This document shows, in pieces, positions 11,208 through 35,858 of a stretch of 40,212 bases of DNA. The notes beneath the pieces were generated by a model. The model did no database searches. It saw only the letters and a program-made list of their open reading frames with translations, and was not told where the DNA came from. A program made the translations under genes and the position numbers. The stretch is from positions 128,001-168,212 of the IMG/VR virus record IMGVR_UViG_3300032731_000668; one strand, written 5' to 3'. This DNA is from a virus (Duplodnaviria > Heunggongvirae > Uroviricota > Caudoviricetes). Numbering within the stretch: the stretch's first letter is position 1; each line of letters begins with the position of its first letter.

Positions 11208-12080
11208 TCAATCATCATAAAAACCATTTCGAATTTTATAAACAGTGGCTATATTGATACCAAGTTCTCTAGCAATCTTTGGGCCAGATATTTTTTTCTT
11301 CAATAATTTTTTTGTTTGCAAAATTGTTTCCTTTTTCAAGGCATTAGATTTAACCCATTTTCGACTTGGCAAACTATATATTTCATTATAAAAACCTCTA
11401 CTGGCCCTACTCACAACGCTCTTGCTGATTTTTAAATTTTCAGCAATTTCTTTTTGGGATAGCCCTTTATCAAGATATTTTATAATTCTTAATATAATTT
11501 CTTTTTTAAAAATTTTAGACATTCTCATTTTCTTTTTTGTTTCTAGGGAAGGTGTTTTTCCATACATGCCATTTAACTTGCCACATAGTCTGACTCCCCA
11601 CATCGGATTGTTTTCATTTTTATGTGCCTTAGACATTTTTTCAATTGTTTCTGGAGAATGTGTTCTGCCATAATTTGGATTATCTTTTCCTAGTTTTCCA
11701 TAGTTAGGATTATTTTTGCCACTTTGAGCAGCACACATTTTCTTAATAGTTTCAGGAGAAAGTTTTATTCCCCTATTGCTTTCAACACACTCACGAATAT
11801 TATAGGATAAGCCATGTGCTTTGTTTATATCACAAAATAATTGCTCATAATAAGTCAATTTTTCTGGTATACAATATATCAATATTTCAAAAATAAAATT
11901 TGTTTCTCCATGTTTATTAAAAGAACTTTGCAAATAAGGATTATGATGTTGATTTCTTCGTAAATCACCCAAATGGTCATTTTTCCTAGATTTTAAATGT
12001 ATGCTCTGTCCAACATAGCACTTTCCATTTATAAGATTTCTAATTTGATATATTCCGCAATTAAAATCAGCTTTTTTCAT
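11208..12080 (-). CDS. GIY-YIG homing endonuclease with NUMOD3 repeats and C-terminal HTHs
   Basis: GIYQIRNLINGKCYVGQS..R..H; HSPETIEKMS, NNPMWG repeats; SQKEIAENLKIS and IARELGINIATVY HTHs. Confidence 0.9.
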   Translation of the reverse strand: MKKADFNCGIYQIRNLINGKCYVGQSIHLKSRKNDHLGDLRRNQHHNPYLQSSFNKHGETNFIFEILIYCIPEKLTYYEQLFCDINKAHGLSYNIRECVESNRGIKLSPETIKKMCAAQSGKNNPNYGKLGKDNPNYGRTHSPETIEKMSKAHKNENNPMWGVRLCGKLNGMYGKTPSLETKKKMRMSKIFKKEIILRIIKYLDKGLSQKEIAENLKISKSVVSRASRGFYNEIYSLPSRKWVKSNALKKETILQTKKLLKKKISGPKIARELGINIATVYKIRNGFYDD

Positions 12081-12178: not shown

Positions 12179-12646
12179 TTAACTATAGAAAATTTGGTTT
12201 CTCCAGCTTGACCAACTATTTTTGCGATATGAATAATCATTTAGTTTCTGGGAAACATCTTCTTTTATTGAATTATAATAACTTTGTTTTGCTCGAAGAC
12301 TGTTTGCTTCAGAGTACATCTTAAAATCTCGGTCTTGGAGCATATTTCGACTTTGTAAAATATCATTGATTTCTTTCTTCATCCAATATTTAACCATAAT
12401 GGCCGAAAGCATTAATTGGTTTTCAGTTGTAAGATCTACGTCAAAATATCCTTCAATGACACTTCCGGAGACAGTATATGTTAGTGATTGATTGCATTCA
12501 TTAAATTCTAAAATACTGTTAAGCAAAAATGGTTCTAAATAAATGTCTAACACGAGACTGCCAGACGTAGTATAAATATTTGTAAGTCTATAGTCCGTAA
12601 TATTGGTCAAAAAAAAGTCAAATATTGTTGACGATAAAGTTCCCAT
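12179..12646 (-). CDS. Putative head-tail connector/adaptor protein
   Basis: 155 aa, AGGAGG RBS; FDVDLT.E..ML...MV.YW...I and DFKMYSEAN.L pattern recalls SPbeta-like head-completion proteins; synteny. Confidence 0.55.
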   Translation of the reverse strand: MGTLSSTIFDFFLTNITDYRLTNIYTTSGSLVLDIYLEPFLLNSILEFNECNQSLTYTVSGSVIEGYFDVDLTTENQLMLSAIMVKYWMKKEINDILQSRNMLQDRDFKMYSEANSLRAKQSYYNSIKEDVSQKLNDYSYRKNSWSSWRNQIFYS

Positions 12647-12733
12647 TAAGTAACCTCCTATTTAAATGCAAAATCCCACTACTTATAGAGGGAATATTTT
12701 ATATATGTAAATAAACTTATTAAACATCAAAAT

Positions 12734-12813
12734 TAGACAGGTAGGGAGTCGAACCCTATTTAATCGGAAGTATGAATCCAATGATTGCACCAATTACTAC
12801 AATAGGCCTATCT
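12734..12813 (-). tRNA. Atypical tRNA-like RNA, anticodon CAU (Met/Ile2-like or pseudo-tRNA)
   Basis: Acceptor AGATAGG/CCTGTCT plus A; T arm TAGGG-TTCGACT-CCCTA; anticodon arm ATTGGA-TTCATACT-TCCGAT (8-nt loop, or 7-nt loop with a bulge); D arm ATTGTA-GTAATTGG-TGCAAT; no encoded CCA. Confidence 0.6.
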
Positions 12814-12976
12814 ATTTATAGGTGTTCAGGTCACTCAATTGTCCGATGTATCGGGCTTCTTGGGAATATTCCCGCACCCTTACCCCAGACGCATCGCCCT
12901 CAATGTACCTATTTCTTCAATCCGTCAATTTATCACGCCGACGGAAAGCGTTTTCTTTTACGATAAAATGCCCATT

Positions 12977-13633
12977 TTATGGGACAAGAGGCATTTTTCT
13001 GTAAGAACCAGAAAATTCAGCCTCTTCAATTATTTTTACGCCAGAAATACGAGCGAATTTGTCTACAATATTCAAATCTAATTTTTCACCATTTATAATA
13101 CGTTCTATTATCATTCTACTAACATGTAGTTGTTGAGTTTTATTAGTAGTTTCAAGTAATTCAGCGCATTTTTCAGAATCACATTTGAGTACTTCTTGCA
13201 TTTGTTCAAAATCAAGGAGGTTTTCGTAGATTTCGTTGAATCCAGATTTCTTTACAACATCTTTATCGTTAATATACACATATCCTTCGCGGAAAAAATC
13301 AGTATAAAGACCGCTACCATGACTTTTTATTAGAAGTTGTAAATCTGAATAAACTATTTGTGATACATCTCCAAAATTAACCCAAGTATATGGAAAACCC
13401 ATGCCTTTTGTTTCGGTGGTCATTGTCAGCATGTTTGGACACAATGAGATTACTTCAATGTAATCGTCTTGACTTACACTATCTCTTTTAGATCTAGGTG
13501 CATCACTATCAATTTGTCTTTGCATGTTTCTTATCTGTATTTGTGATTCCAGAATCAATTTTTCCATTTTGTCGATCTGCGAATCTTTAGGAACCTGTCT
13601 TGTTGTAGTTCTTTTCTTAGGTTGTTCAGCCAT
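12977..13633 (-). CDS. Hypothetical head-module protein (SPbeta YonA-like position)
   Basis: 218 aa, GAGGA RBS; YTWVNFGD...YSDL...FFREGYVYI.D; first non-nuclease gene downstream of major capsid. Confidence 0.6.
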   Translation of the reverse strand: MAEQPKKRTTTRQVPKDSQIDKMEKLILESQIQIRNMQRQIDSDAPRSKRDSVSQDDYIEVISLCPNMLTMTTETKGMGFPYTWVNFGDVSQIVYSDLQLLIKSHGSGLYTDFFREGYVYINDKDVVKKSGFNEIYENLLDFEQMQEVLKCDSEKCAELLETTNKTQQLHVSRMIIERIINGEKLDLNIVDKFARISGVKIIEEAEFSGSYRKMPLVP

Positions 13634-13782: not shown

Positions 13783-14826
13783 TTATTGATCTTTAATTTT
13801 ACCTGATTTAATTTTTTCTAAAAATTCATACCACATTTCGGGAGTTGTATCTCCATACCCATAAATATTATGAAATTTCATATGCCAATCACGAGTCAAA
13901 CATGCTCCAAGAGGATATCTCATATGAAGTTCTCTTAATTTTTTTAGAAGTAATTTTAAATCATCTTTTTTATAATCACCAGCATTTTCTTTTAATTCAA
14001 AATTCAATTCTTTTATAGATTCTTTAAATATTGAGTTGAAAGAATATACATGATGTATATCATCATATTTTTCTCCGCTAATAACGCATTTTCCACCACA
14101 TTGTTTTATAGATTCTTTTTTCCAGCGAGTTATTCTATTTTGCAAATAATCTCTAATATTTGTTAGTCCTCCCCGCCAATTACTTGCATTAACTCCACTT
14201 ATTCTCTCTATTAAGTCTATTCTTGAACAAACAAAACATTTATGCCACTTTAAAAAACTACTAAATGCCACATAATTAATATGATTATAATTACAAGTAT
14301 ATTTTATTTTAGAGTTTCTATTGATATACTCATCAGGAAAATCTATAAAGATTAGATTGTTGTCTTCCATTATCTTATTTATTCTTTCCATGGAATATTT
14401 TCTAGAAACTTTTGATTTTTCTAATCCACATATCCTACATCTTCTTCCTCTTTTAAAAGACTCAAAGTTTGTCTTTTTGCCGATATGACTACATTCAAAT
14501 TGTATTATCAATGGTATTTTGCTATTTTTATATTCGATTGAAAGCAATTTGCAATTTTTTAATTTAATATATTCTTTTACATCTTCAAATTTAAAACTAT
14601 ATTTCTCACTAAATATACGATTTCGACATTCTGTACATCCATTACCGCTCCATACAGACCAAGTATCAGCATTCCATTTGTTACCACATATTTTACATTC
14701 AAATAAACTTTTTCCGTGAGATCCTTTAAATTCTAGTAAGGCAATTTTATCTCCATGGGTATCAAAAGTTCTTTTTATTGCAACTTCATTTGTAATTGTA
14801 TCTTTTCTTTTATAGTAGTCTCTCAA
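13783..14826 (-). CDS. Free-standing HNH-type endonuclease with N-terminal Cys-rich repeats
   Basis: Start reassigned to TTG at 14826 (AAGGAGG RBS). CKIC..CTEC, C.H..RCRIC repeats; ASNWRGG; C-terminal CVISG...DIHH...GACL...H..FH..YG. Confidence 0.75.
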   Translation of the reverse strand: MRDYYKRKDTITNEVAIKRTFDTHGDKIALLEFKGSHGKSLFECKICGNKWNADTWSVWSGNGCTECRNRIFSEKYSFKFEDVKEYIKLKNCKLLSIEYKNSKIPLIIQFECSHIGKKTNFESFKRGRRCRICGLEKSKVSRKYSMERINKIMEDNNLIFIDFPDEYINRNSKIKYTCNYNHINYVAFSSFLKWHKCFVCSRIDLIERISGVNASNWRGGLTNIRDYLQNRITRWKKESIKQCGGKCVISGEKYDDIHHVYSFNSIFKESIKELNFELKENAGDYKKDDLKLLLKKLRELHMRYPLGACLTRDWHMKFHNIYGYGDTTPEMWYEFLEKIKSGKIKDQ

Positions 14827-14928
14827 TTCATCCTCCTTTAGATGATTATTTAATATTAATAGGTAGAAAGACAACTAAGGAAAGTTATCTTTATCGGTAA
14901 GTTAGCAAAATTCACCTATCTACCTATT
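14827..14928 (-). promoter_or_regulatory. Structured leader RNA, copy 2
   Basis: P1 AATAGGTAGA/TCTACCTATT; TAG; P2 GGTGA/TTACC; GATAA; P3 AGATAAC/GTTGTCT with loop TTTCCTTA complementary to SD AAGGAGG. Confidence 0.75.
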
Positions 14929-15007: not shown

Positions 15008-16099
15008 CTATAACGTGATGGTTCCGGCCGTTGAGTTTGTCGCTACCCCAACTCCCCAACTCTTCCAAAGGGTAGTTGTCTGTTTTAGATCGGCTTTTTC
15101 AAATTCTCGCGTTGTATTGGCGAGTGTATTACCTTCCAAAACTAGTTTTACGATTTTATTTACCGCCGGTGAAACAAGCCAAAGAACCGTGTCACTTAAA
15201 ACTCTGCCCCAAGGCGTATAAATGTCAGCAACCTGTGGTAATCTCATTATATCAATACCTGAGATTGTAGGAATATGTCCAATAGAAACATACTTAGATT
15301 CTAAATCATATCTATAGTTTGCATCATTTGGTAGCACGTTTAACAAACCGACTGCCGTTCCTAAAAGCACGGCTTTTGCTCCACCGTTCCAAGCAGCAAC
15401 TTGTTCTGAAAGTCTAACTAGTCCAGCTTGTGTATAGCCAGAAATTCGCAGTCCAGTCGTTGCCGTAGTGGGCAGCGCGGCCATAGCAGATGCCATTGAA
15501 TTATAAACATCTACTGTCATCTGAGTTTCAATGGATTTAATAGCCTTTGTTGTAAAAACTGCCAGACTTTCTTTTCCAGACAAAACTCTATATAGCGAAA
15601 CGCCAGTTGTAATAGCATGAACATCGGGAATAATGGTTACTTGACCATTCCACTGCTTTTTTACTTCAGCTTCTCGTTTTCCTAAAGTTGCTTTGCTTAC
15701 CACAAACAAATCTCTTGGTTCAATATCAAAAGAGGCACTATCTCCCCATCCAATCACGCTCACATCAGCATATGTGCCAATGGTGTCTATAATACTATCA
15801 GGAAGAATCATATCTATTAGCGAACCAACAACGGAAAATGCCGCTGGTGCAACATTTGGAAAAAAGAACCATTCTTCAACGGGTTTTTCTGCCATATTGC
15901 CAAGATTGGCGCGCATAATAATCTCTTCTTTTAAAGCTTTATTAAGTATTGCTTCTTTCTCGTCTAAACTAATATCGGTACTAAATCGTCCTGCCACATT
16001 GGTGCTGTGGTACCAATAGTCGAGAAAGCAACGAGCTAAATCCTCATTGTTTAAGGATTTAGTTGAGAACGAAACTAAATTATCTACTGTATTTTTCAT
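15008..16099 (-). CDS. Major capsid protein (SPbeta YonB-like)
   Basis: 363 aa; follows protease/scaffold and decoration genes; capsid-like composition; AAGGAG RBS; function from synteny. Confidence 0.75.
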   Translation of the reverse strand: MKNTVDNLVSFSTKSLNNEDLARCFLDYWYHSTNVAGRFSTDISLDEKEAILNKALKEEIIMRANLGNMAEKPVEEWFFFPNVAPAAFSVVGSLIDMILPDSIIDTIGTYADVSVIGWGDSASFDIEPRDLFVVSKATLGKREAEVKKQWNGQVTIIPDVHAITTGVSLYRVLSGKESLAVFTTKAIKSIETQMTVDVYNSMASAMAALPTTATTGLRISGYTQAGLVRLSEQVAAWNGGAKAVLLGTAVGLLNVLPNDANYRYDLESKYVSIGHIPTISGIDIMRLPQVADIYTPWGRVLSDTVLWLVSPAVNKIVKLVLEGNTLANTTREFEKADLKQTTTLWKSWGVGVATNSTAGTITL

Positions 16100-33134: not shown

Positions 33135-35858
33135 TTAATTCTTTTCCACATCAATTTTTTGTAGCGAATATTTTTTTCCCAAATAATCTATATCTCCCGT
33201 ATCACTTACTAGTGGGATGAAATTTTCTTTCTGCTTATTTTCTGTAATATTCGCCAAAAGCCCATCCTCAAAAATTGACCACAAAAAATTTTTTCCATCT
33301 CCGGGATGTTTTACATAGCAGATTTCAACAGCAAGATTTGCAAGTTCCTGCATATTATTCGATATCTTCGTGGCTTTGTTACGGATGTATATGTTGTAAT
33401 GCTGCAATGTTCTGTAAGACCGTTCACCGCTATTATTTTTAATATTTGCAAAATTTCTTTTTCCTGTCTTAAACTCTTCATATAGTTTGTACAATTTTTT
33501 AAATTTTTGTTCATCAAATTCATATTTAGATGTTTTTAATAAAGAAATGTTGAATTTTTTACTTCTTGCCCGCATGTCGAACTTAATAACTTTTACTGAT
33601 TTTTCCATGAAACGACACACTTTGTTCATGGCACAAGGACTATCTAACAAAGGTGAATACCTATGGTACTTTTCAACAACTTCTTTTTCTTGTTCTGTTT
33701 GCGGGCTATCTAACATTTCCTCTAAACTTTTGCCGTAGTTAGTTTGACAGAAATTCTCGTATGTTTTTTGATAATTTTTATAACGCTTATTATAATTTTG
33801 GTAACGATAGCGGAAAAAATAAGGTCTTTGATTTATTCTAATACTATTGTTGAAATTACATAAGTCAATTTCTTCGCTCATATTGTCATTATCGGCTGTG
33901 ATATATTTTGTCCAATATTTTGGAAGCGGCACTACTTCTAAACCCTTTGCGTGATCTATATTTAGCCCCTGTAGTTTTCTACATAGTTTTAATCTTTTTT
34001 CGATTTCTATGAATTCATGTGAACCAACGTCGTAGGAAGCCTGCATGGCAAACAAAGTTGTAGAAATGTTTGTGATAAATCCAATTTTTGAATTGAACCC
34101 AAGTGTATCTATCTTCCACAAATTGTTCTCTATAATAGGTTCCTTTTTAGCGGTTTCTCTACTATACGTTATCGGCAGACCTCGAAAAGCGCCTTCTATT
34201 ATTTGTTGCTGATCAGTTGTTGCAATTAAGTCGCCATCAAAGTCAGCATCGGCATGCAGCATCATGTCAGTTCCATGAACATCATAGATAGTGCATCCGT
34301 TTTGCAAATGTTTATACCATTTGTCGGTTTCATCATTATCAACAAGATTTAAAACATTAACTTCTGATCGCCATGTAAGAGGCGCACGCATTGCGGCAAC
34401 TTTAGAAACATTTCTTTTATTCCAAAATCCGCTATAATGCTGCCACTCATCTAAAAGCCCTTTTATTGGTTTGTCAAATATGTACTCACAAAAAGCGACG
34501 GGGTCCGCTACTATGAAAGAATAATTCCCATTTACGATGAGACTTCCAACATAACTTTCTTTAATCTTCTTATTGAGACTTTTTATTAAATAATTTTTTA
34601 CATGCGGATCTTGAATAAGCGAGTTGTTAAGGATTATTGCCTTAGTCACTGTATCATTAATACTATTAAACAGGTTGTCATTGTTATCTACGTCGGCAAG
34701 AGACCCCATTAAATAAAGCGCGGCGAAAGTCCAGTCACTATTTACAGTTTTATCAAAATATTCAACCGTTTTCTCACATAGTAATTCTATTTGTTCGTCA
34801 TCCAGATCGAGTGCCTGTAGAAACTGGTAATTTGTAGTTACACTTGTTTTATCTGTTTCTGGTGCTACTCTTACTACTCCGAAATGGAAATCGTTTTCTT
34901 TACAATTTCTTTGATATTCTTGTAATGAGTCATAGTTCTGCCATGCCTTAAATTGGCTCGTTGTCAAAATAAGATCCATGTCACGTATATTGACGGAATT
35001 TCCCCAAGCATCTTTAAAAATATGTTTTTCGGCTACTTCTTCAGAATACATGTGAAAATCGAATACACACACTAAACCTTTCAAGAATGATGATCGTATT
35101 AAAAAAGAACTGGGTATGTAGTCAAGCCGCAGATCTTTCGCCCATTTCTTCGCCATTTTTGGTGACACTAGCCCCATTCCATCAAAAATGTTTCCGGACA
35201 ACTCCATTTCTTTTACAGACACTTCATTATTATCATCAATAAATTCAACTTTGGTGTCTTTTTTAATCTCGCAGTCCTGAACCACACAAAAATAAGGATC
35301 ACTTACTGGAATTGTCCCGCTATAAGAAAGAGCAAAATAAGCGTTATTCTTCGCTAAGACTATATCGTCTAGTCTTCGCCCATTATTCAGCATTCTTTTC
35401 AGCTCTTTTTCAATGTGTTTGGAGCAGAAAATTACTGTATTTCTTCTGCTATGCCCTGCACCGCATAATAATCTCGTAAACTCCACCCCATTTATTTTGA
35501 ATCCTTTTTTTATTATTTTTTTGTACTGCGATTTACTATCTACCGTTAAAGAAACAATATCTGGCACAAATAATATGCCATCAATAGTTGTCTGGATATT
35601 AATTAATTCTTCAATATTCTCTGTACATGACTCTAATTTTCGTATATCTCGTCTGTTCTGAATTAGGACGTCCAGATAACTTTTATCGAATAACTTACCT
35701 TTTATCTTAAATACAGATAAAATAACTTGATTTTGTGAAATCGATATCAGCTCTGCATTTTTTCGTGCTTGAGAAATACTGAGTTCGACATTATAATTTG
35801 CTTTTTTGATCCTACTAGAAGATAACTTAAAAACAAAAAACTGTTGATTTTTCTTCAA
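33135..35858 (-). CDS. yonO: YonO-like single-subunit double-psi-barrel RNA polymerase (RdRP-related family)
   Basis: 907 aa; catalytic HADADFDGD (DFDGD at ~34230-34244), FDGMG, IRSSFLKG, MRAP, IGFITN, IDHAKG; upstream of HU and the late module as in SPbeta. Confidence 0.87.
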   Translation of the reverse strand: MKKNQQFFVFKLSSSRIKKANYNVELSISQARKNAELISISQNQVILSVFKIKGKLFDKSYLDVLIQNRRDIRKLESCTENIEELINIQTTIDGILFVPDIVSLTVDSKSQYKKIIKKGFKINGVEFTRLLCGAGHSRRNTVIFCSKHIEKELKRMLNNGRRLDDIVLAKNNAYFALSYSGTIPVSDPYFCVVQDCEIKKDTKVEFIDDNNEVSVKEMELSGNIFDGMGLVSPKMAKKWAKDLRLDYIPSSFLIRSSFLKGLVCVFDFHMYSEEVAEKHIFKDAWGNSVNIRDMDLILTTSQFKAWQNYDSLQEYQRNCKENDFHFGVVRVAPETDKTSVTTNYQFLQALDLDDEQIELLCEKTVEYFDKTVNSDWTFAALYLMGSLADVDNNDNLFNSINDTVTKAIILNNSLIQDPHVKNYLIKSLNKKIKESYVGSLIVNGNYSFIVADPVAFCEYIFDKPIKGLLDEWQHYSGFWNKRNVSKVAAMRAPLTWRSEVNVLNLVDNDETDKWYKHLQNGCTIYDVHGTDMMLHADADFDGDLIATTDQQQIIEGAFRGLPITYSRETAKKEPIIENNLWKIDTLGFNSKIGFITNISTTLFAMQASYDVGSHEFIEIEKRLKLCRKLQGLNIDHAKGLEVVPLPKYWTKYITADNDNMSEEIDLCNFNNSIRINQRPYFFRYRYQNYNKRYKNYQKTYENFCQTNYGKSLEEMLDSPQTEQEKEVVEKYHRYSPLLDSPCAMNKVCRFMEKSVKVIKFDMRARSKKFNISLLKTSKYEFDEQKFKKLYKLYEEFKTGKRNFANIKNNSGERSYRTLQHYNIYIRNKATKISNNMQELANLAVEICYVKHPGDGKNFLWSIFEDGLLANITENKQKENFIPLVSDTGDIDYLGKKYSLQKIDVEKN

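Follow-up and report, generated by a model that had tools for sequence, protein, structure and literature searches.

How should we read a short stretch of phage DNA, lying between two structural genes, whose transcript would fold into a cloverleaf with the acceptor and T arms of a transfer RNA and an anticodon arm of unusual dimensions? A first-pass annotation of this locus described a non-canonical tRNA(CAU)-like RNA, and suggested a frameshift or quadruplet decoder, a tRNA that resists anticodon nucleases or acts as a decoy for them, or a tRNA-like processing signal within the late transcript. The element lies in an IMG/VR record of 168,212 bp, complete by CheckV, of which the window, that is, the whole stretch of 40,212 nucleotides analysed here, comprises bases 128001-168212. 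The closest relatives of its major capsid protein, at 37% identity, belong to Enterocloster phages, and contigs identical across the region are present in runs of one viral-metagenome and one freshwater-metagenome study. Every gene around the tRNA-like structure (TLS) lies on the minus strand, and the 330-nt gap between the genes for a 218-aa and a 155-aa protein contains both the TLS and a second structured RNA upstream of it. The features of the neighbourhood, in window positions, are these:

15008-16099, minus strand: homologue of the major capsid protein.
13783-14874, minus strand: HNH-type endonuclease gene, between the capsid homologue and the 218-aa gene.
13745-13717, minus strand: promoter-like TTGACT-17-TATAAT sequence 5' of the 218-aa gene, from a consensus scan.
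12977-13633, minus strand: gene for a 218-aa protein of unassigned function (phrog_5329), the upstream neighbour and second gene after the major capsid gene.
12969-12986, minus strand: terminator-like hairpin and U run at the stop codon of the 218-aa gene, from a consensus scan (fold energy -5.9 kcal/mol).
12820-12910, minus strand: conserved structured RNA without a named family, 91 nt, 6 nt upstream of the TLS.
12814-12819, minus strand: spacer of 6 nt, AUAAAU, that separates the TLS from the upstream RNA and places a U at position -1.
12734-12813, minus strand: the TLS, 80 nt, from its minimum-free-energy fold, six other complete copies at the same locus and our own covariance model.
12723-12696, minus strand: weak promoter-like site in the TLS trailer, from a consensus scan.
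12694-12704, minus strand: conserved TATAAAAT-like box directly 5' of the next hairpin.
12670-12693, minus strand: hairpin UCCC(U)CUA-UAAG-UAG(U)GGGA with UUUU after it, some 10 nt 5' of the ribosome-binding site of the 155-aa gene.
12179-12646, minus strand: gene for a 155-aa protein of unassigned function (phrog_3853), the downstream neighbour.
11208-12080, minus strand: GIY-YIG homing endonuclease gene, downstream of the 155-aa gene.

Homing-endonuclease genes (GIY-YIG/NUMOD3 and HNH) thus flank the locus, and they are also scattered throughout the genome, with at least a dozen Pfam matches; an intein that contains a LAGLIDADG domain interrupts the gene for ribonucleotide reductase (L170:16843-19788). 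Elsewhere in the genome there are two adjacent small ORFs, L167:18750-18989 and L167:19041-19253 (plus strand), with the Acb2/Tad1 hairpin domain (E = 1e-18 and 3e-21), which we take to mark an anti-CBASS/anti-Thoeris sponge family, and two pairs of EcoRI-type adenine methylase and GmrSD/HNH genes (L166:3723-6088 and L169:4881-6901).

The reverse complement of the element folds at -22.1 kcal/mol into the cloverleaf of the first-pass annotation, which is both its minimum-free-energy and its centroid structure. A 7-bp acceptor stem (AGAUAGG/CCUGUCU, with one U.G) is followed by a 3-nt linker, CCU, in place of U8-A9. The 6-bp D stem (AUUGUA/UGCAAU) closes the loop GUAAUUGG, which has GG inside it; one C then leads to a second 6-bp stem (AUUGGA/UCCGAU) with the 8-nt loop UUCAUACU. 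After a 4-nt variable region, UAAA, come the T arm UAGGG-UUCGACU-CCCUA and the discriminator A, and CCA is not encoded. The suspicion of an indel error in the 8-nt loop, raised in the first-pass annotation, can be set aside, because the same sequence occurs in contigs of two studies: Logan contigs of three runs (X1, X3 and X7) span the TLS with no differences and no gaps, although the record may itself derive from some of these runs, and the contigs of a further run, X8, do not reach the element. The fold energy alone is mildly unusual (z = -2.39 against 200 dinucleotide shuffles, of which 4 fold at least as well), and a loose descriptor, consisting of a 5-bp T stem, a TTYRA loop and a 7-bp acceptor, finds between 0 and 4 matches, about 1 on average, in each mononucleotide-shuffled genome. 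Given this modest z score and the matches in shuffled sequence, the significance of the TLS rests on its conservation with compensatory changes.

Programs that look for standard tRNAs do not accept the element. ARAGORN in default mode calls no tRNA at the TLS, and a call of mtRNA-Met(cat) comes from its permissive mitochondrial mode only. With introns allowed or thresholds lowered it offered tRNA-Ser(act), Leu(cag) on the other strand and Pro(tgg) with an intron; these calls are inconsistent and low-scoring and were disregarded. The Rfam tRNA model (RF00005) gives the TLS 13.3 bits (E = 7) against a gathering score of 29, and among its orthologues L128 receives 21 bits and the rest are unreported at E up to 10, so that none reaches the cut-off. 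ARAGORN found no tmRNA in the window or in the whole genome, nor was there an Rfam match to one. The idea of an antisense target was also dropped: the TLS is complementary to other parts of the genome over at most 13 nt, and shuffled versions reach 11-14 nt.

The relatives of the locus are more informative. Using the 218-aa protein as the anchor for locating orthologous loci, we obtained one IMG/VR contig and nine metagenome loci, to which a pattern for the T arm and the 3' acceptor strand added L161 (complete) and L158 (cut at its 5' end). Two of the metagenome loci, L122 and L129, are too short past the gene to judge and L123 ends inside the upstream RNA; L126 is identical to L127, and L125 to the IMG/VR copy, L004. 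There are therefore seven distinct complete copies, all within one phage clade: those of the window, L130, L124, L125, L126, L128 and L161. N-termini homologous to the 155-aa protein (MGTLSSEIFD...) follow 3' of the TLS in L124, L126, L130, L158 and L161. Beyond this clade, an exact 38-nt TLS pattern has no match in IMG/VR, blastn of the region (801 nt) finds none among GenBank phages, and no prophage relatives were found in 185,579 species genomes with the alignment of the 218-aa protein as query. In the Enterocloster phage PMBT24, on which our TLS covariance model finds no match, the two flanking genes are 23 nt apart with no RNA between them, and the operon evidently does not need such a signal.

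All seven copies have a 7-bp acceptor stem (AGAUAGG, AGAUGAG, AAGUAGG or AAAUAGG, each matched by its partner strand), a T stem of 5 bp in which L128 has one U.U, the invariant T loop TTCGANT and an invariant A73, so that the UUCRANN loop and discriminator of a canonical tRNA are present throughout. Six of the seven have a hairpin of D type, its loop containing the GG or GGG that serves the tRNA elbow, and this hairpin covaries (GUGUG/CACAC against GUAUG/CAUAC); a U precedes the acceptor stem in six of seven family members. On an alignment fitted to our model, 76 of 77 cells pair, a figure that leans to the model but with which the raw copy table agrees; sliding the partner by 1-3 columns as a control lowers pairing to 29-51%. 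Compensatory changes on both sides are seen in 6 of 11 tested pairs, and none of 500 shuffles reaches the covariation score. Between the window and L130, its closest copy, the T stem shows compensatory replacements of A-U by C-G and of G-C by A-U. The covariance model, trained on six copies with L161 left out, scores the window at 98.5 bits and the untrained L161 at 51 bits.

It is on these data that two readings which deny the RNA a function are to be judged. A decaying, functionless tRNA pseudogene would account for a lower half that breaks tRNA rules differently in every copy, and for the absence of the TLS from Enterocloster phages. It would not account for the compensatory double changes, for a T loop and A73 that stay invariant beside a flanking protein only 56-77% identical in the metagenome copies, or for a position fixed in all seven evaluable loci, and we consider it very doubtful. 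The first-pass argument that four paired stems speak against decay stands for the acceptor and T arms, which covary, and finds no support in the anticodon stem. The other reading is that selection acts on DNA, the element being a remnant or mimic of a host tRNA gene used as an integrase attachment site. It is common for the attP sites of phages to copy the 3' halves of tRNAs, and the genome has two integrase-family genes. The nearer of these is about 8 kb away, however, attP function would require the core to match a canonical host tRNA exactly, and no match was found in bacterial genome contigs. We reject this reading as almost certainly wrong because both acceptor strands covary, which indicates selection on RNA pairing.

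No second strong copy of the TLS was found in the phage genome with our model. The gap that follows an SPFH-domain gene contains a miniature tRNA-like group of hairpins, 57 nt long (L166:8223-8279, plus strand; genome 27223-27279). It has an acceptor of 7 bp (GGGAAGG/CCUUCCU), a T arm GCGAG-UUCGAAU-CUCGC and 25 nt between them; as a second TLS it scores 23 bits (E = 0.23) with a fold z of -1.07, which is chance level. Of 34 IMG/VR loci that match a pattern of T arm and 3' acceptor strand, 20 are without an ARAGORN tRNA. Three of the 20 belong to the TLS family, and the remaining 17 appear to be additional tRNA-like elements of non-standard form in unrelated phages; they include L132, L134, L137/L142/L156, L139/L144/L145/L148-L150, L143, L147, L152 and L153/L157/L159, and of these L132, L153, L137 and L139 score 25-32 bits with our TLS model.

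The part that relatives do not keep is the anticodon arm. Total TLS lengths are 68, 70, 80, 80, 95, 121 and 155 nt, and the distance from the 5' acceptor strand to the T stem ranges from 36 to 123 nt across the seven copies. Only L130 shares the architecture of the window, with its CCU linker and both long stems, and even here the closing pair of the 'anticodon' arm has changed from A-U to C.A and the first two loop bases from UU to AA, which means that neither the equivalent of U33 nor the 8-nt loop is maintained. In the other copies the arm is replaced by anything from 13 nt to more than 100 nt. The stem of L124 is 3 bp long and carries the loop UGUCAUG; in L125, L161 and L126 hairpin domains, about 40 nt to over 100 nt in size, fill the position; and in L128 the D and anticodon regions are fused into one arm. 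Retention of the 8-nt loop in homologues, which the first-pass annotation proposed as a check, is thus seen in none of the six other copies. The string CAU(A/G) does occur in the loops of the window, L130 and L124, and from this the TLS probably descends from a tRNA(CAU) gene.

These observations bear directly on whether the TLS decodes. A working tRNA(CAU) with an 8-nt anticodon loop might read quadruplets or shift frame, or might be a Met or Ile tRNA reshaped against an anticodon nuclease, and in its favour are the four paired stems of the window copy, the recurrent CAU(A/G) and the confirmation of the loop by contigs of two studies. But a canonical tRNA keeps a 5-bp anticodon stem and a 7-nt loop with U33, where the window has a 6-bp stem and an 8-nt loop, and a quadruplet or frameshift suppressor is an otherwise canonical tRNA with a conserved 8-nt loop, where the body of the TLS is itself non-canonical. 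The sub-threshold Rfam score and the silence of ARAGORN point the same way, and tRNA geometry suggests that a 6-bp D stem and a 6-bp anticodon stem would lengthen the limb from anticodon to CCA. L130, moreover, has an A in the place of U33. Any decoder, quadruplet reader or nuclease-resistant tRNA needs a conserved loop, and this loop is not kept; from sequence comparison, then, the TLS is a non-decoding tRNA-like structure and not a standard tRNA. We regard the decoding proposals of the first-pass annotation, the frameshift or quadruplet version as well as the nuclease-resistant or decoy version, as highly improbable, since the anticodon arm is the one part that varies freely among relatives, with 36-123 nt between the 5' acceptor strand and the T stem and no U33 equivalent in L130.

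In proposing a function for the TLS, we need to explain why its upper half is conserved and its lower half is not. The stacked acceptor and T stems, the elbow, A73 and the U at -1 are the parts of a tRNA used by RNase P, RNase Z and the CCA-adding enzyme. Selection most likely keeps just what these maturation enzymes read, namely the 12-bp acceptor/T stack, the T loop, the D-type hairpin with its GG, A73 and U-1. Our preferred reading, to which we give about an even chance, is that the TLS acts in the manner of the plant mitochondrial t-elements, as a substrate for RNase P, RNase Z and the CCA-adding enzyme. The processing signal in a transcript that the first-pass annotation listed last fits the conserved acceptor stem, T arm, elbow and A73, and the cleavage itself is what we predict from them. 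Like a t-element, the TLS has a non-canonical cloverleaf, a paired acceptor and the GGTTCRANYCC T-arm motif, which reads GGTTCGACTCC in the window and is present in all seven copies; it also lies on the same strand as the 218-aa and 155-aa genes, as in the relatives, and would be co-transcribed with them.

The mechanism would run as follows. Host RNase P would cut at the 5' end of the TLS, between 12814 and 12813, and RNase Z or an equivalent would cut after the discriminator at 12734, whereupon the phage CCA-adding enzyme could tail the released RNA. The TLS would in this way punctuate transcripts that span the gap from the 218-aa gene to the 155-aa gene, separating upstream from downstream RNA. 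The same cut would give the structured RNA that lies 6 nt upstream its 3' end, in the manner of mascRNA and MALAT1. Transcription, both cleavages, CCA addition and any effect on neighbouring RNAs are all put forward here as predictions. The position of the TLS on the same strand between two structural genes supports the t-element-like reading, as does the upstream RNA directly 5' of it in four of seven loci; against it, L130, L128 and L161 carry the TLS without that RNA, and forming its 3' end cannot therefore be the sole role.

The upstream RNA is itself a conserved structure. It has a closing helix, P1 (AGGU.../...ACCU), and two invariant strands, CAUUGAGGGC at 12896-12905 and GAGUGACCUGAA at 12825-12836, the latter appearing across the family as GAG(C/U)GACCUGAA; between the two lies a variable hairpin domain of 48-128 nt. 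P1 covaries fully (AGGUG/CACCU, UCGGUA/UACCGA, CCCGCCCG/CGGGCGGG and GUGUCGGUGGUGG/CCACCACCGACAC), and its alifold pair counts are to be taken as lower bounds. The RNA is present in a single copy in this genome and in ten distinct instances in phage-like contigs. Four of these stand directly before a TLS (the window, L004/L125 at L004:392-515, L124 and L126/127), and six are without one (L005, L019, L022, L062, L173, which is Bathyarchaeota-binned, and L174, binned to a Gemmatimonadota MAG), hairpins or a U run coming next instead. Chance matches in the pattern scans were dropped by eye or by a second motif (3 of 6, 47 of 51, 57 of 62 and 2 of 4 loci), the last two being L172 and L175, which lack the closing helix. 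Since each RNA is found with and without the other, we regard them as separable modules. In L005 and L022 a TATAAT box, of the sigma-70 -10 type, lies about 7 nt before the closing helix, and the upstream RNA therefore looks like a primary transcript.

No Rfam family matches the upstream RNA at E up to 10. Neither the HDV-like/theta, hammerhead, twister, pistol and hatchet ribozymes nor Y RNA, SRP RNA, 5S RNA, RNase P segments and several riboswitches offered a convincing fit. Skipping-rope, DUF2693-FD and salivarius-1, the three tRNA-mimic families of a 2026 preprint, are Rfam motifs and gave no match either.

How the RNA region is transcribed bears on the choice between mRNA punctuation and a free-standing product. 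The terminator-like hairpin at 12969-12986 is also present in L123, L124 and L130. On the other side, the stem of the 12670-12693 hairpin is kept despite differing sequence in L124, L126, L130, L158 and L161, with fold energies of -7.3 kcal/mol in the window, -14.6 in L130 and -11.1 in L126, and the same five loci have the TATAAAAT-like box. This hairpin either terminates the RNA unit or forms a stem at the 5' end of the downstream mRNA, and the box could be the -10 element of a promoter for the 155-aa gene that overlaps the terminator of the RNA unit. Flanked by terminator-like hairpins, and with what may be a promoter in its trailer, the TLS would be a small, separate transcription unit, which favours a stand-alone RNA product over mRNA punctuation. 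A 907-aa protein (window 33138-35858, minus strand) matches the cellular-type RdRP family PF05183 (E = 3e-18), presumably the family of the YonO/crAss-type single-subunit phage RNA polymerases, and part of the genome may therefore use promoters that a sigma-70 scan does not see.

The main rival to the t-element-like reading is a stand-alone tRNA mimic. On this account, which we think possible, if tentative, the working RNA is the TLS itself: stable, small and CCA-tailed, it would act in trans by binding or titrating some protein that reads the top half of tRNAs. It might be aimed at a tRNA-targeting defence or toxin of the host, or at the set of RtcB, RlaP and CCA-adding enzyme that the phage itself carries. 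The two accounts share their processing steps and the same enzymes. The rival explains why the TLS persists in the three loci that lack the upstream RNA and suits a region that may be its own unit, and the elbow between D and T loops is kept in six of seven copies. There is, on the other hand, no Ro60/TROVE partner among the 218 phage ORFs annotated with Pfam (E up to 1e-5); the sequence of the acceptor stem varies, so that no fixed identity set is evident; and a decoy for an anticodon nuclease would need the conserved anticodon loop that is absent here.

The genes that bear on both accounts lie elsewhere in the genome:

L169:1954-2892, plus strand: RlaP (Pfam).
L169:3429-4808, plus strand: CCA-adding enzyme with PolyA_pol head, RNA-binding, tRNA_NucTran2_2 and HD domains.
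L169:11450-13513, plus strand: RtcB, 688 aa, the Pfam match covering residues 368-688 only.

This is the kit expected where tRNAs are attacked, a further point for the stand-alone mimic. CCA is encoded in none of the six tRNA genes of the phage that Rfam detects, and a phage CCA-adding enzyme beside tRNA genes without CCA means that the RNA-finishing machinery is partly phage-borne. A tRNA gene of 112 nt (L168:11251-11362, plus strand; genome 68251-68362) scores 56.6 bits in Rfam; its acceptor, D and T arms are canonical, but about 40 nt are inserted inside the anticodon loop. ARAGORN with introns reads the gene as tRNA-Gln(UUG), placing an intron at 34/35. This insertion falls well below the size of a group I intron, and RtcB is encoded in the same genome. 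A 126-aa ORF (L169:8348-8725) matches the tRNA-binding arm of ValRS.

A broader proposal brings these parts together. The TLS and the upstream RNA might form a small-RNA unit matured wholly by tRNA enzymes, in which the CCA-tailed mimic, with the phage CCA-adding enzyme, RtcB and RlaP, would counter host defences that attack tRNAs by serving as a decoy or sponge for a reader of the tRNA top half, and the upstream RNA would represent a new structured family with members in diverse phage-like contigs. Taken whole, we hold this to be unlikely, though were the decoy or sponge part true it would define a new class of phage anti-defence RNA.

The usual view of phage tRNA genes is that they help with codon usage or, lately, that they replace tRNAs destroyed by host defences. 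What this locus offers is a conserved phage 'tRNA' in which selection would act only on the half that processing enzymes recognise. Both tRNA-like processing signals and tRNA mimics are already known; what is new is a conserved, anticodon-free one in a tailed phage, together with its setting beside an unnamed RNA family and the backing of a phage CCA-adding enzyme. A search of titles and abstracts found none on anticodon-less tRNA mimics as processing signals in DNA phages. If the TLS is cut as we predict, tailed phages would share with organelles and MALAT1 a logic of tRNA punctuation that shapes transcripts and matures other small RNAs, and a layer of phage RNA biology would be escaping notice wherever gene finders discard such elements or give them the wrong label. 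The analysis has also revealed a conserved structured RNA without an Rfam family and a phage with a full tRNA end-repair kit.

The structural features of the TLS have analogues in several known systems. With canonical tRNA-Met or tRNA-Ile2(CAU) it has in common the acceptor stem, the T arm and loop, the GG of the D loop, A73 and a loop with CAU; it differs in its sub-cut-off score, 3-nt linker, 6-bp D and anticodon stems, 8-nt loop and unconserved anticodon arm. Phage RNAs matured by host RNase P have precedents: the review PMC11143913 names the C4 antisense precursor of P1 and P7 and the tRNA-like molecules of T-even phages, describes RNase P as processing phage and mRNA substrates, and notes that some T4 tRNAs need CCA addition. 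These RNAs have no relation to the TLS in sequence or structure, however, and C4 is an antisense regulator, whereas the complementarity of the TLS is at chance.

A closer likeness is the bacterial Y RNA YrlA (Chen et al. 2014, PMC4201824), which is also a mimic with T arm, D arm and acceptor and with no anticodon function; the YrlA of M. smegmatis is cut by RNase P and CCA-tailed, and YrlA has been linked to RtcB loci, also in phages. YrlA differs in its Ro60-binding stem with the motif GNCGAAN0-1G and in its place beside rsr, whereas here the motif was not seen in the TLS or its flanks and there was no Rfam match to Y RNA and, as above, no TROVE protein. The mascRNA at the 3' end of MALAT1 resembles the TLS in lying directly downstream of a structured non-coding RNA, and cleavage by RNase P at mascRNA makes the 3' end of MALAT1 (PMC8457004). 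That system is a eukaryotic nuclear lncRNA, and with the TLS standing alone at three of seven loci it is not the whole story here.

The system nearest to our preferred reading is that of the t-elements of plant mitochondria (Forner et al. 2007, PMC1920247), which share with the TLS a non-canonical cloverleaf, the T-arm motif, an acceptor stem and a place beside protein genes. They were found through the GGTTCRANYCC motif and are substrates of RNase P and RNase Z at least in vitro; their ends coincide with mRNA ends, cutting by these two enzymes being either proposed or shown in vitro, and some carry an added C or CA (PMC1920247). The t-elements of that account are organellar and have mapped transcript ends, whereas the TLS belongs to a tailed phage and is known from DNA. 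Unlike them, the TLS family has an anticodon domain that can exceed 100 nt, and its CCA-adding enzyme is carried by the phage itself.
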